Below are positions 7,395-16,263 of a stretch of 18,792 bases of DNA, one piece after another. The stretch is from positions 1 to 18,792 of the forward strand of contig CAZSWP010000057.1 in assembly GCA_964610875.1 (NCBI GenBank). The letters are read 5' to 3'. Below the pieces are notes generated by a model. The model was not told the origin of the DNA, did not search any database, and saw nothing but the letters and a program-made list of their open reading frames with translations. This stretch comes from an uncultured archaeon. Lineage in GTDB: Archaea; Asgardarchaeota; Thorarchaeia; Thorarchaeales; Thorarchaeaceae. The position numbers were made by a program, and so were the translations under genes. Within the stretch, counting starts at the first letter, position 1. Each line of letters begins with the position of its first letter.

Positions 7395-9179
7395 TCACAT
7401 TCTTGGTGATGACTCAATGTTTCTCACCAATGGTGAGCTGAGGATATCATTGACCTCCTTTATTATTGAGGTATCTTTTGTTTCAGAGAGTAATCTCTCA
7501 ATTTCTATAATCCCGCTACCTAGTCTGTCTGACAATCTGTCCGCCAAATCCTCTGAGAAGAAGTAATTCTGATAGACCAAAGCATCACAAATACTGTCTA
7601 GATGTCTGAAGTCGCGAACAGATTCAGTAGTATTCTGTTGCGCAATATATTGAAGTGATTTGAATAATGCACGACAGATATTCTCTTGTTTTGGATAGAC
7701 AATGGGAATCTCTTCCATGATTCCTGTGTTGAGACACGTAGTTAATTCGGAATAATTTGTAAGATATTTGATGCTGATATACTTGATAAGACGAGAATTT
7801 AAAATGAGCCCAATAACGGCGGGATCCATACGTTCGTCCAAAATATGGATTCGGACAATACCGCCACCATGGATGATTCCCTTCGGTTTTATGATACATC
7901 TTGGATGCGGAAAGTTTTTCGTAGCGACAAGAAATTCTTCTTCAAAAGATATCTTTAATTTTGCATCTCGTTGATAGGTATTGTTGGCAAACATCAGCTT
8001 CTCGTTATTTATCTTGTATCTCTTGACACTTCCACCTTTTGTTATGTAAGGTATTAGATATTTTGAGGATTGTTCCCAACTGACATTTTCATGCTCTAGG
8101 TCTCTCCCTCTTACTGCCTTTAGTAGACCTGTTTCTCCTCTTTGTAAAATGAGTTCATAAAGTCCATCATAGTAAATGGGAAAGAGTCGTAATCTTGTAA
8201 GCAGTTCCTTTGGTACAACACCAGAGCTTTCCAAGTTTTCTCTTCTTGAATTCACGTGCAACTCATCTAAGCTTCCTATGGATGAAGGACTGCAATGGAG
8301 CGTTACCATTTCCAGTGTTACTTCAGAGAAAGGACTTCCTTCATCAGTTATTCCCCATAATCCTAAATTCTGCATCAAATATTTTCTTGTCTTTGTGAAT
8401 TGTCTAACTCTGAGTATTGAGTTTGGTACAAGAAATCCTAGCTCACCTTTCTTACTAAGAAGTTGACCAGCTCGTGCTATAAAAAGAGCAGCAGCATTCC
8501 AAGTTCCATCTCTGCCTGATGCTACTAATTTCCCATAATCATTACTTAACCAATCACGTTCTATTGAAGAGAGAATATTCCCATAGGGTGGATTACCAAG
8601 TATAATGTCAAATCCTGGTTCTTCTCCAATCATAATATCAGGAAATTCAAGATACCAATGAAATGGAGATACTTCTTGAGGGGGATACACCTTTGGTTCA
8701 AGAGTGTCAAAGAATCCCACTAGACCATTTCCTTGCTTAATTTGAAGTGGAAGTGTTACAGAATTGCCTGCCCAATCAAGTAGATTTGAAATGGTTTCCC
8801 ATATTGACTCGTCTCGAATATCAACTCCAAACAGATTATTGGTCACAATCTCCTCTTTCAATTCATTCTCTGATAGTCCATCTTCTAGCAATTTTCGTTG
8901 ATTTAGGATAGACTCCGCTGCTGCTATTAGGAAGACACCATCACCAACAGATGGGTCTAATACTCTAATCTCCGCAAGATAATCAAGAGCTTTGCTTCTC
9001 TGGGATTCTGAGAGATTTCCTGTAGTAAATATGCTATAATCTGTTGATTCAAGATTTCTCTGTAACCATCTATGAATTGCTTTTTCAGTTATCATTTGAG
9101 CTAAATTATAGGGTGTATAGAAAGTACCTGTCTGTTTCTTCTGTTCATGTGTCAGCGGTGTCTGCAAACGGAGACTCAA
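7395..9179 (-). CDS. Amino (N6-adenine-type) DNA methyltransferase, Eco57I/TaqI-like gamma class, orphan
   Basis: GTFYTP (motif X), VLDPSVGDGVFL (motif I), GVDI, FHWYLEFP, FDIILGNPPY (motif IV), FLVPNSIL, and a C-terminal TRD-like region (LILNSRLI...IPI). Confidence 0.9.
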   Translation of the reverse strand: MSLRLQTPLTHEQKKQTGTFYTPYNLAQMITEKAIHRWLQRNLESTDYSIFTTGNLSESQRSKALDYLAEIRVLDPSVGDGVFLIAAAESILNQRKLLEDGLSENELKEEIVTNNLFGVDIRDESIWETISNLLDWAGNSVTLPLQIKQGNGLVGFFDTLEPKVYPPQEVSPFHWYLEFPDIMIGEEPGFDIILGNPPYGNILSSIERDWLSNDYGKLVASGRDGTWNAAALFIARAGQLLSKKGELGFLVPNSILRVRQFTKTRKYLMQNLGLWGITDEGSPFSEVTLEMVTLHCSPSSIGSLDELHVNSRRENLESSGVVPKELLTRLRLFPIYYDGLYELILQRGETGLLKAVRGRDLEHENVSWEQSSKYLIPYITKGGSVKRYKINNEKLMFANNTYQRDAKLKISFEEEFLVATKNFPHPRCIIKPKGIIHGGGIVRIHILDERMDPAVIGLILNSRLIKYISIKYLTNYSELTTCLNTGIMEEIPIVYPKQENICRALFKSLQYIAQQNTTESVRDFRHLDSICDALVYQNYFFSEDLADRLSDRLGSGIIEIERLLSETKDTSIIKEVNDILSSPLVRNIESSPRM

Positions 9180-14056: not shown

Positions 14057-14271
14057 CCTTATTTGAATGCGTACTTCGCCCTTTATATTAGGCTTAAATT
14101 CTCCAATATAATTGTTCAATGAAATAGTGACGGGTAGTGAACTATCATCATTCTCTATATTCATTTTCGCGACTAGGTCGCGCAGAAACCTGCCTTTAAT
14201 AGCAAATTAATCACAATACATAGCTTTACAGTACATAGTGTTGCTATATACTAACTAAGAGTGTGTAACCA

Positions 14272-14484
14272 ATGGGATTACGTGAATAAATCCTGAGAAG
14301 AAGCATCTACATGTTTCTCTTAGTGGTAGCTGTAGTATGTTTCAACTTCTTTCTCTTCAGACTCCCCACACTCGTACTTGGTGCAAGTCCGGTCGATTTG
14401 ATGATCAGCGAAGAACTGAGAAGAAATCTAACTAGGGATGCTCTTGAACAACTGTATCTACGGTTTGGACTCGTTCCTGATCCC
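14272..14484 (+). pseudogene. 5' fragment of a DppB/OppB-type peptide ABC transporter permease
   Basis: ATG 14272: MGLRE*ILRRSIYMFLLVVAVVCFNFFLFRLP...SPVDLMI...LYLRFGLVPDP. The in-frame TAA at 14287-14289 replaces the conserved Tyr of YILRR. The rest of the permease is absent. Confidence 0.8.
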
Positions 14485-14815
14485 GTATTAGATGATCTAT
14501 CTATCATTATTAAATTGAAAGACAATCAATGGTTCTTCTTTGTGGTTGTTGCCATGCTGGCATAATTAATACAGTTGATCATCTTAGAGAAATCAATCAA
14601 ATGATGTTAGGTTTATCATCGGTGGCTTTCATTTACATGATGCTTCTAATAGATGTATAGAAAAAACTGCCGAACGATTACACAAACTCTCCTTGGAAAG
14701 CATAGCCCCTTGTCATTGTACTGGATTGAGAGATAAAGCGATTTTATTATCTAAGTTTGGAGATAGATTCAAACATGTAGGTACAGAATCATTATTGACC
14801 TTCGAATCCTACTAA
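14473..14815 (+). pseudogene. 3' fragment of a COG1237-type MBL-fold hydrolase, two frameshifts
   Basis: Read across three frames: VPDPVLDDLSIIIKLKD / SMVLLCGCCHAGIINTVDHLREI (from 14526) / SNDVRFIIGGFHLHDASNRCIEKTAERL...IAPCHCTG...FGDRFKHVGTESLLTFESY* (14597-14815). DD, GCxHAG, GGFHL and PCHCTG are the COG1237 motifs in the correct order. Confidence 0.88.
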
Positions 14816-14986
14816 TAGCTGTTTGTATAATTCAGAAAGAGAATACCCCTTTGCTGCTCTTGGAATACTTGAAATTCGTTCTATTGAATTAACTCTGATT
14901 TTATACGTATGTGGATATATTCTGAATTCAATTCAGGTATTCTTGTAATCATTTGGAATCGTACTGATTACAGGAATTAGTTACAG

Positions 14987-15016
14987 TTGAGAGCATCAAA
15001 AATCTGATGCTCCCAA
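14987..15016 (-). terminator. 12-bp stem-loop downstream of the 39-aa ORF
   Basis: Minus-strand RNA UUGGGAGCAUCA-GAUUUU-UGAUGCUCUCAA pairs fully with one G-U wobble; the plus strand would have an A-C mismatch there. Confidence 0.55.
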
Positions 15017-15051
15017 AGTTCGACTCGGTACAGAGAAGAAGAGAGTGTTGA

Positions 15052-15171
15052 TTACCTTACAAGAGAACCTACATGTCTAACGTAAGTGAGTGACGTGTCG
15101 GTTGCTCGATGCTTAGATTCGATGCACTCCCAACGACCCTGTGATTTTCTTTTGAATATGCTTAATGCCAT
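15052..15171 (-). CDS. Unannotated 39-aa small protein MALSIFKRKSQGRWECIESKHRATDTSLTYVRHVGSLVR
   Basis: ATG 15171 to TAA 15052; GAGG SD 8 nt upstream; minus-strand TTTATATA at 15256-15249; pyrimidine tract and hairpin downstream. Below the ORF-track length cutoff. Confidence 0.6.
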   Translation of the reverse strand: MALSIFKRKSQGRWECIESKHRATDTSLTYVRHVGSLVR

Positions 15172-15222
15172 TTTCGTTTCCTCATTGGTTGTCTGTCTTG
15201 GTACAAGACTCACACTTTTTTG

Positions 15223-15292
15223 TTACAAGGTGTAATACTTACACTAAGTATATAAACTTATGGAATAAAGTGTAAAAATTACACTTTATATA
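15223..15292. promoter_or_regulatory. Divergent promoter with two palindromic operators GTGTAA-N3-TTACAC
   Basis: Site 1 is GTGTAA-TAC-TTACAC (15230-15244). Site 2 is ATAAAGTGTAA-AAA-TTACACTTTAT (15265-15289, perfect 11-bp arms). The cores are exactly 40 bp apart. TTTATATA occurs on the minus strand (15256-15249) and on the plus strand (15285-15292). Confidence 0.8.
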
Positions 15293-15357
15293 TCAATTAG
15301 TATAACCGATGCAATAATAAATGAACAAGCATCTTGTTTACAGTAGGAGAAAGAACG

Positions 15358-16263
15358 ATGACCAAAAAAAACAACAAGTCGGATAAACTCCTAGAGTATC
15401 CTGAGGGCTTACCTGATACAAAAGTACGGAGTTATGTATCCATTACTGATCCTTCAATTGTCGATTCGTTCTTGGACCCGATTCGTAGAGCTATACTTGT
15501 GACACTTAGGCATGGTATTGACAGCATCAAAAAAGAAAGCAAGGAGAGCATCATTACAAGGGATGATGGAACTACCGTGAAGACTATTGTTGTTGAAGAA
15601 ACGAAAGTCAAAAGGATGTGGATGAGCGTTCCTGAGATTGTAAGCAATACAATGGGAGAAGTTGAAGTATCAAAGTACAACTGTTATTATCATCTACCCA
15701 TCTTGATCCAACAAGGTCTTGTTGAGCAGTATCCTCCTCCTGAATATGATAAGGATGGTAGAGAAACCTCAAGTAGACGTGGTTTATACTATCGTAGAAC
15801 TGCTAAGGTATTTGTTATTTCTAGCTCAAAGATGAGCGACGATCTTGTGAAAGATTACATGACATTGTTCGAGAAAGGTTTTGGAATGAGCATGACCAAA
15901 AAAACACGGGAGCGATTAGAAGATCTCATGATACGTCAGGTCGAACTGATTGATGAAGCAATGGAGTATATCGCTGTACACCTAAAAGAGGTAGAGCTTG
16001 ATTCCACTGTACTGAATGATATGCTTACAGAGATGTCCTATGTCTTCTTATCTGATAATCAAGACTTTCTTAAAATTCAGCGTGAGATTAAACGACTCGT
16101 ATTGACACCATGTTGTGGGAAGGCTGCTGATATGACGGGTGTTTGTTCGTTTTGTGGTGACACACTATTAGAAGACGCAGTTGTAAGAGTAGTAGATGGT
16201 AAGGAACAATCGTTTTGCTCAGACACATGTGCTACCAGTTACCTAAATGAATGCGCTGGCTAG
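15358..16263 (+). CDS. ArsR-like winged-helix transcriptional regulator with C-terminal TRASH/YHS-like metal-binding domain
   Basis: DPIRRAILVTL...MSVPEIV...SKYNCYYHLPILIQQGLVE...YYRRTAK (wHTH with an inserted beta-hairpin). C-terminal CSFCG-...-VDGKEQSFCSDTC is TRASH-like, preceded by an extra PCCG. Start re-assigned to ATG 15358 behind AGGAG (15345-15349). Confidence 0.82.
   Translation: MTKKNNKSDKLLEYPEGLPDTKVRSYVSITDPSIVDSFLDPIRRAILVTLRHGIDSIKKESKESIITRDDGTTVKTIVVEETKVKRMWMSVPEIVSNTMGEVEVSKYNCYYHLPILIQQGLVEQYPPPEYDKDGRETSSRRGLYYRRTAKVFVISSSKMSDDLVKDYMTLFEKGFGMSMTKKTRERLEDLMIRQVELIDEAMEYIAVHLKEVELDSTVLNDMLTEMSYVFLSDNQDFLKIQREIKRLVLTPCCGKAADMTGVCSFCGDTLLEDAVVRVVDGKEQSFCSDTCATSYLNECAG

Follow-up and report, generated by a model that had tools for sequence, protein, structure and literature searches.

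Bacterial metalloregulators are known to control small proteins that act on other components of the cell, as exemplified by MntR and the 42-amino-acid (aa) MntS of Escherichia coli and by Fur and the basic peptides FbpA, FbpB and FbpC of Bacillus subtilis. In archaea, regulators of the CopR/CopT type (e.g. PF0739 of Pyrococcus furiosus) combine a helix-turn-helix (HTH) domain with a C-terminal cysteine-rich domain of the TRASH clan, are transcribed divergently from their target and have their operators in the shared intergenic region (PMC7830388). CopR is an octameric, global regulator of the Lrp type, which adjoins copA and senses copper (PMC7830388). Besides copper sensors of this kind (PMC7830388), the TRASH clan comprises purely structural fingers (PMC4047054). 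A further system of relevance is Spot 42/SpfP, a short transcript with a tiny open reading frame (ORF) and a structured 3' end, the small product of which may target a transcription factor (PMC8916003; reviewed in PMC12310071). Here we analyze a divergent gene pair in an 18,792-nucleotide (nt) stretch of DNA from an uncultured archaeon of the Thorarchaeaceae (Asgardarchaeota; contig CAZSWP010000057.1 of assembly GCA_964610875.1), which is referred to in its full length as the window. The pair consists of a gene for a 39-aa peptide on the minus strand (ATG, 39 codons and TAA at 15171–15052, with the codons extending to 15055 and the stop at 15054–15052) and a gene for a 301-aa regulator on the plus strand (15358–16263), separated by a spacer of 186 base pairs (bp).

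This gene pair resembles the CopR/CopT systems in the combination of an HTH domain with a C-terminal cysteine-rich domain of the TRASH clan, in the divergent orientation of regulator and target, and in the location of the operators between them. It differs from CopR by an ArsR-like HTH domain, a tail that matches zf-FCS best, a single sharp palindrome, a 39-aa peptide as the target, and the lack of a transporter nearby. Like MntS and the Fbp peptides, its product is a very small, long-overlooked protein under repressor control, and the Fbp peptides are likewise basic. However, MntS and the Fbp peptides are bacterial and show no sequence relationship to the peptide, for which searches of Pfam and NCBIfam gave no family match, and MntR and Fur control many genes whereas here a single target, the peptide gene, is apparent. 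The resemblance to Spot 42/SpfP is limited by the archaeal nature of the locus and by the hypothetical status of any base-pairing role. Altogether, the two genes probably form a self-contained module, in which a one-component repressor has the peptide gene as its sole clear target and the peptide is the output of the switch.

The peptide gene was traced through a family sample of 86 genomes. A search with the 39-residue peptide found full-length matches in nine other genomes, and a profile made from these matches added two more, resulting in 12 genomes with a full-length peptide when the window genome is included. The peptide ORF was located ~190–260 bp from a regulator orthologue (53–63% identity) and divergent to it in every match. 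Orthologues of the regulator (E<1e-100) occur in 16 of the 86 genomes, and the four of these genomes that gave no profile match carry a divergent ORF of 37–39 codons in the same spot and with the same overall pattern. The ORF thus accompanies the regulator in 16/16 species genomes, no regulator orthologue was found without it, and no significant match to the peptide ORF occurs without the regulator. All of 21 further loci on public genome and metagenome contigs also contain the ORF; they are for the most part the same 16 loci again, but contributed one new variant. Counts based on 17 loci in the following refer to the 16 species genomes plus one metagenome locus.

All copies of the ORF start with ATG and comprise 35–39 codons, and the single 35-codon copy differs through an in-frame deletion of 12 nt. 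Pairwise ratios of nonsynonymous to synonymous substitution rates (dN/dS, Nei-Gojobori method) were mostly 0.1–0.3 with dS at or beyond saturation, and the differences by codon position (0.34, 0.23 and 0.52 for the first, second and third position) were most frequent at the third. The coding frame is open in all 17 copies, compared with 0–2 of the 17 for each of the five other frames, which contain 22–39 stops in total. A Shine-Dalgarno (SD) sequence of the GAGG(T) or GGTGA type was found 6–10 nt before the ATG in 16/16 loci; in the window it is GAGG at 15183–15180 on the minus strand, 8 nt before the ATG at 15171. Because of the low dN/dS, the open frame, the in-frame indel and the conserved SD sequence, we conclude from this comparison that the ORF encodes a protein and is under purifying selection. 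It is hardly ever reported by gene callers: of seven orthologues that were looked up, six are missing from a collection of ~15 billion proteins, and the other one is present there without a name.

The distribution of the peptide is narrow. A profile search of 400 genomes across the phylum retrieved no convincing peptide outside the genera g1, g8 and g6 of one family, and a divergent copy in a fourth genus, g3, was located by inspection. As judged from these searches, the peptide family is new, restricted to Thorarchaeota and confined to some of their members. Weak matches in other families were caused by a short GCWECxE motif inside DUF3795 proteins and were taken as chance. In the DUF3795 proteins of another Asgard family (L053:1333–1731 (+), L055 and L063), this motif is similar to the middle part of the peptide from one genus, which is probably a coincidence.

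The window peptide is hydrophilic with an isoelectric point (pI) of 10.4, and all 17 copies are basic (pI 9.6–11.4) and hydrophilic. Among the 16 aligned peptides, M1 and the C-terminal R39 are invariant and W14 and R32 are present in at least 90%, while recurring features are a cluster of basic residues at the N terminus and an aromatic residue around position 30. The number of cysteines and histidines varies from 0 to 2 each across the 17 orthologues. Since these residues are not conserved, metal binding by the peptide is unlikely.

An initial annotation of this DNA had predicted an unannotated peptide gene on the minus strand, and the presence of the ORF in 16/16 genomes and in the metagenome locus agrees with that prediction. 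The homology search with the 39-residue peptide, which had been suggested there as a way to examine conservation and linkage to the regulator, revealed synonymous-biased conservation and strict linkage. Stops or frameshifts beside orthologous regulators, which would have spoken against a gene, did not occur at any of the 17 loci. The same annotation had listed one cysteine and two histidines in the peptide; these vary among the 17 orthologues and thus do not constitute a conserved metal site.

When flanking ORFs of at least 70 aa were compared for the 16 loci, the regulator was the only one conserved across genera. In genus g8 (L078:1774–2478 (−) and four other loci), a gene similar to RNase PH (exosome-type) is located directly downstream of the 3' stem-loop described below and on the same strand. 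A function of the peptide as a leader for the downstream gene was considered and rejected, as the RNase PH-like gene is conserved within one genus only. The idea of a mobile element was also rejected, as a search of viral contigs returned no relative of the regulator.

The regulator is composed of three parts, which are a winged helix with a long beta-hairpin insertion (residues ~30–155), a helical region (~160–248), and a six-cysteine domain of the zf-FCS/TRASH clan (252–295) with the motifs PCCG, CSFC and FCSDTC. In Pfam searches with the window protein, zf-FCS was recognized at residues 263–295 (25.4 bits; cutoff 22.4), and HTH_20 remained below its curated cutoff (18.5 vs. 27 bits). For the 16 orthologues, HTH_20 was detected in 15 (best E 3e-7), HTH_5 (ArsR) in seven and zf-FCS in ten proteins. 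Weaker matches of the tail comprised DUF7576, zf-FLZ, L24e, YHS, ATPase-cat_bd, Arc_trans_TRASH and TRASH_HVO_1752_C. Seven cysteines are invariant in the 16 orthologues, one of them in the HTH domain (C109) and six in the tail, where they follow the pattern CC-x9-CxxC-x20-CxxxC. The tail contains the zf-FCS signature CX2C-X14-30-FCSX2C (PMC4047054) as C263-x2-C266-x19-F286-C287-S288-x2-C291, and its four cysteines and F286 are invariant in the 16 orthologues. Domains of this type can be structural zinc fingers for contacts with proteins or nucleic acids (PMC4047054). It is solely the domain family that points to a metal- or redox-responsive regulator.

Structure prediction by AlphaFold2 with the 16 orthologues gave an unusable model (predicted local distance difference test score, pLDDT, 50.8), which was replaced by a run with 86 sequences that included paralogues from an exhaustive profile search. 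In the resulting model (pLDDT 88.7), a long beta-hairpin splits the winged helix, and the remaining elements are four long helices and a beta/alpha tail, which is small and resembles a zinc finger. The only significant Foldseek matches of this model were to PH1932 of Pyrococcus horikoshii, an ArsR-homologue DNA-binding protein (1uly and 2cwe; E 4e-8 and 4.5e-7, probability 1.0), and a sequence search of the PDB with the regulator returned nothing meaningful. PH1932 and the regulator both consist of a winged helix and a C-terminal domain, with 18% sequence identity and a TM-score of 0.36–0.54. However, PH1932 lacks the long beta-hairpin insertion and the six-cysteine zf-FCS tail, and its entry titles name neither a function nor a partner.

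The regulator family is small, with only 63 representatives at E≤0.001 among 1.8 billion proteins, and in a separate word-index search every named match was labelled Thorarchaeota or Promethearchaeota. In many paralogues, the same N-terminal 150–160 residues are fused to arrays of PAS domains. Because of these fusions, the C-terminal part can be regarded as a variable sensor slot. The sequence data thus mark the N-terminal domain as a putative lineage-specific DNA-binding platform, and the C-terminal part as what would be an exchangeable input module. Paralogues of the N-terminal domain often occur as divergent pairs, in which one protein has ~250–300 aa and the partner is very long and contains multiple PAS domains (for example G007:C21:150945–152406, G005:C65:8162–9416 and G008:C6:34772–36239). 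Such pairs suggest a family of one-component sensors specific to Thorarchaeota. A paralogous regulator in the window genome (locus L021) is accompanied by no comparable peptide or palindrome.

The spacer between the two genes was aligned for ten loci, and all sixteen were then scanned. An invariant block was found on the peptide strand of 16/16 genome loci, consisting of TTTATA(A/T), a gap of 3 nt (4 nt in the window), and a palindrome. In the window, these elements are the TATA box of the peptide promoter (TTTATATA, 15256–15249, minus strand) and operator 1 (GTGTAAGTATTACAC, 15244–15230, read on the minus strand), which has the structure GTGTAA-N3-TTACAC. Operator 1 is exact in 12 of the 16 loci, contains one mismatch in three loci and two mismatches in one locus. 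Archaeal TATA boxes are usually centred near position −26. From this spacing we infer that transcription of the peptide gene starts near 15226, and operator 1 would then cover about −18 to −4, between the TATA box and the expected start site.

In the 3.75-Mb genome of the window (G000), three exact copies of the palindrome are present where ~0.4 are expected by chance, and two of the three are located at this locus, 40 bp apart. In genomes G047, G048 and G058, the site at the peptide promoter is the only exact palindrome; two further genomes lack an exact palindrome altogether and have a slightly degenerate local site. Sites with one mismatch were no more common in G000 than for a reversed control (8 vs. 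17). A wider regulon was rejected, as there is no excess of such sites and the lone additional exact site is consistent with chance. This site (L076:3001–3015, corresponding to G000:C14:15365–15379), the only other exact palindrome in the genome, lies on a different contig, ~125 nt inside an ORF for a 255-aa membrane protein. Because the exact palindrome is rare and near-unique in the genomes tested, the regulon looks local, with the peptide gene as the sole clear target predicted from these sites.

Operator 2, the second perfect palindrome of the window (15270–15284), lies 40 bp from operator 1 between both TATA boxes and abuts the TATA box on the regulator side (TTTATATA, 15286–15293). The full operator 2 was found in only ~4 of the first ten aligned loci. 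The remaining g8 loci have a TTACAC half-site at this position, and genus g6 has a half-site of the GTG(T/C)(G/A)A type after the TATA box on the regulator side. Judging from these sites, control of the regulator's own promoter is plausible and not conserved in form.

The peptide transcript appears to be structured at both ends. The window contains the 5' hairpin GTCTTG-GTA-CAAGAC in the 5' untranslated region (UTR; 15209–15195, minus strand), the stability of which was not above chance (z −0.93). When 11 loci were folded, each had its own, differently sequenced 5' stem-loop at the same place with the SD sequence left free (z −1.5 to −4.4 for the others), and no common alignable or consensus structure of the 5'UTR was found across the loci. 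A 3' stem-loop (15014–14989 in the window, minus strand) is present in 16/16 loci, with compensatory changes at all 11 pairs of the alignment. In this stem, 89.6% of the alignment cells were paired, compared with 73% in column shuffles (0 of 500 reached the observed value) and 41–52% in controls with slid partners. One G-U pair of the window stem corresponds to a C-A mismatch on the opposite strand, and frequent G-U pairs across the loci render the stem specific to the sense strand of the peptide gene. Oligo-T follows the stem in many loci and is also enriched after stop codons genome-wide.

Between stop codon and stem, 13 of the 16 loci contain a CU-rich tract (roughly TCTCTCTAT followed by C/T-rich bases; 15047–15031 in the window, minus strand) with a column identity of 0.60, compared with 0.31–0.42 in the flanks. 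A general terminator motif was rejected as an explanation of this tract, which is not enriched downstream of stop codons genome-wide. Sequestration of the SD sequence was rejected due to the lack of consistent pairing, and the tract has no consistent intramolecular pairing partner in the transcript.

Every feature listed in the initial annotation was found at its position, and the spacer contains all motifs that were named there. The predicted combination of a winged HTH with a TRASH-clan tail of six cysteines, divergent to the peptide, recurs in 16/16 loci, as does the operator that had been noticed immediately downstream of the peptide TATA box. The strand-specific 3' hairpin was corroborated by its covariation and by the G-U pairs, which favour the sense strand. 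The 5' hairpin exists at its coordinates, although the window copy taken alone does not exceed chance. The statement that no transporter is present was confirmed, as no metal transporter or chaperone is encoded among the window genes, and none was found in the flanks (up to 3 kb per side) of the 15 other loci compared. This also supports the former view of the peptide as the only visible local target. Overall, the conserved peptide gene, its divergent linkage and the operator withstood the comparison, whereas the cysteine and histidines listed for the peptide are not conserved.

These data can be combined into a model of how the proposed module would operate. The ArsR/PH1932-like winged helix would read a 17-bp palindrome of the 7-3-7 type, AGTGTAA-N3-TTACACT, the helical region probably dimerizes the regulator, and the six-cysteine zf-FCS/TRASH-clan domain presumably serves as the input module. 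Repressors of archaea that bind downstream of a TATA box act by excluding RNA polymerase. Because of this known behaviour and the position of the operator, the regulator bound 3–4 nt after the TATA box is expected to block polymerase recruitment and to silence the peptide gene. The regulator could be released when its cysteine-rich tail changes, either in metal occupancy or through thiol oxidation, and this would allow synthesis of a short mRNA with stem-loops at both ends, which would be translated into the basic peptide of ~39 residues. The peptide promoter appears to be the only clear high-affinity target besides the partial sites at the regulator's own promoter, and the peptide would for this reason be the output of the switch. 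By analogy to MntS and the Fur-regulated basic peptides, the peptide may be a small effector of a partner that is encoded elsewhere, and this is the most likely of the roles considered, ahead of feedback on the regulator and, in third place, a dual-function RNA. A more far-reaching version of the model is an Asgard-specific stress switch without a bacterial or eukaryotic counterpart, in which a cysteine-based sensor regulator is dedicated to a single micro-protein. This peptide, perhaps jointly with the CU-rich 3' region of its mRNA, would reprogram a core process (for example by feedback on the regulator, or at the level of RNA or translation). We consider this version rather unlikely.

Several points weigh against a repressor module with the peptide as its output. 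The evidence for it consists of sequence comparison and a predicted structure. The transcription start site was deduced and not mapped, so that the position of the operator relative to +1 is uncertain by a few bases. As zf-FCS domains are structural in other proteins (PMC4047054), the tail need not be a sensor. Autoregulation is uncertain because the second operator is not conserved. Finally, the peptide lacks both detectable relatives and a confident fold, and its role is a guess by analogy.

Among the competing explanations, the best supported one assumes that the peptide acts on its own regulator through binding, either as an anti-repressor or as a co-repressor, and thus closes a feedback loop, as had been proposed in the initial annotation. 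Bacterial precedents for such a loop are MgrB, which feeds back on PhoQ, and SpfP. The latter peptide has a length of 15 aa and binds CRP (PMC8916003). The strict co-inheritance of both genes and their single shared control region would fit this explanation, but the same linkage is equally expected for a plain pair of regulator and target. Moreover, while zf-FCS domains can mediate contacts between proteins (PMC4047054), the peptide (with M1 and R39 as the invariant residues in 16 sequences) is far less conserved than the regulator with its nearly invariant tail. A complex prediction for regulator and peptide gave no answer (score 0.00, without controls) and is evidence neither way. On balance, we regard feedback on the regulator as an unlikely role of the peptide.

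Less likely still is a dual-function RNA, which would encode the peptide and use its 3' part, with the accessible CU tract, the stable stem-loop and the oligo-T, as a base-pairing small RNA. A seed followed by a terminator is the typical layout of trans-acting small RNAs (reviewed in PMC12310071), and the covariation of the 3' stem is compatible with it. The CU tract, found in 13 of the 16 loci, is more conserved than its flanks, is no general 3'-end motif and lacks a consistent internal partner. However, the tract is of low complexity, which inflates its identity in the alignment, and it is absent from three loci that keep the ORF. The RNA also has no match in Rfam, as searches with the window were empty both at the gathering thresholds and at E≤5.

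It is very improbable that the module is a CopR/CopT-type regulator of resistance to copper or heavy metals that has lost its transporter partner. The tail belongs to the TRASH clan, and CopR is likewise transcribed divergently from its target (PMC7830388), but the DNA-binding domain is similar to ArsR/PH1932 and no family match to Lrp/AsnC was listed. In addition, neither the window nor the flanks compared for the 15 other loci encode a P-type ATPase or chaperone, the peptide promoter is essentially the only place with the operator, and in the four genomes tested the palindrome was not seen ahead of any copA-like gene. Since the type of HTH domain, the neighbouring genes and the architecture of the site all differ, we conclude that the module is not a CopR/CopT system. 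A purely non-coding RNA or regulatory region with an incidental ORF can practically be dismissed: the gene is indeed too short for most gene callers, with six of the seven orthologues missing from the large protein collection and no family match for the peptide, but neither the codon-position asymmetry and low dN/dS at saturated dS nor the constant start and length, the in-frame deletion of 12 nt, the frame open in 17/17 copies against 22–39 stops in total for the others, and the conserved SD sequence would be expected of it.

The favoured repressor-peptide module belongs in part to kinds of systems that are already known, namely divergent pairs of regulator and target, regulators with a TRASH tail, and small proteins under the control of repressors. 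New aspects are the peptide family without relatives, the uncharacterized subfamily of regulators, and a sensor-type regulator in Asgard archaea that is devoted to a single product of 39 aa. A literature search found no paper describing this regulator-peptide module. The annotation of small proteins in archaea is very poor, and hardly anything has been learned so far about gene regulation in the Asgard archaea, which are the closest prokaryotic relatives of eukaryotes. The locus offers a clean, testable case with a 17-bp operator, a regulator that can be expressed singly, a peptide that can be synthesized, and a promoter architecture that predicts repression. Furthermore, the winged-helix platform of the Thorarchaeota, coupled either to PAS arrays or to a cysteine-rich finger, provides a first handle on one-component signalling in these organisms. 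If the peptide regulates a core process, it would represent a new family among the few archaeal micro-proteins whose function is understood.

The other genes of the window are unrelated to the module; among them are genes for a thermosome subunit, a GNAT acetyltransferase, an Eco57I-like methylase, an SPFH protein, an MBL hydrolase and a PMT_2 glycosyltransferase; a tRNA scan of the window was empty. A stretch of 1 kb at 14057–15050, whose longest ORF has no more than 84 aa, has the appearance of gene debris. Within it, the DNA at ~14217–14483 is 80% identical to the 5' part of an intact gene for a 357-aa ABC-permease-like protein on contig C5, and the first 58 residues of the 84-aa ORF starting at 14311 are 98% identical to the product of this gene. 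Later fragments of the debris, in two other frames, are ~50% alike to a gene for a 309-aa MBL-fold protein (COG1237-like) on contig C42, and the short fragments of the stretch had no match in Pfam. The methylase encoded at 7395–9179 (minus strand) is an N6-adenine methylase similar to Eco57I/MmeI, has a TaqI-like specificity domain and is probably a restriction-modification enzyme of type IIG/IIL.

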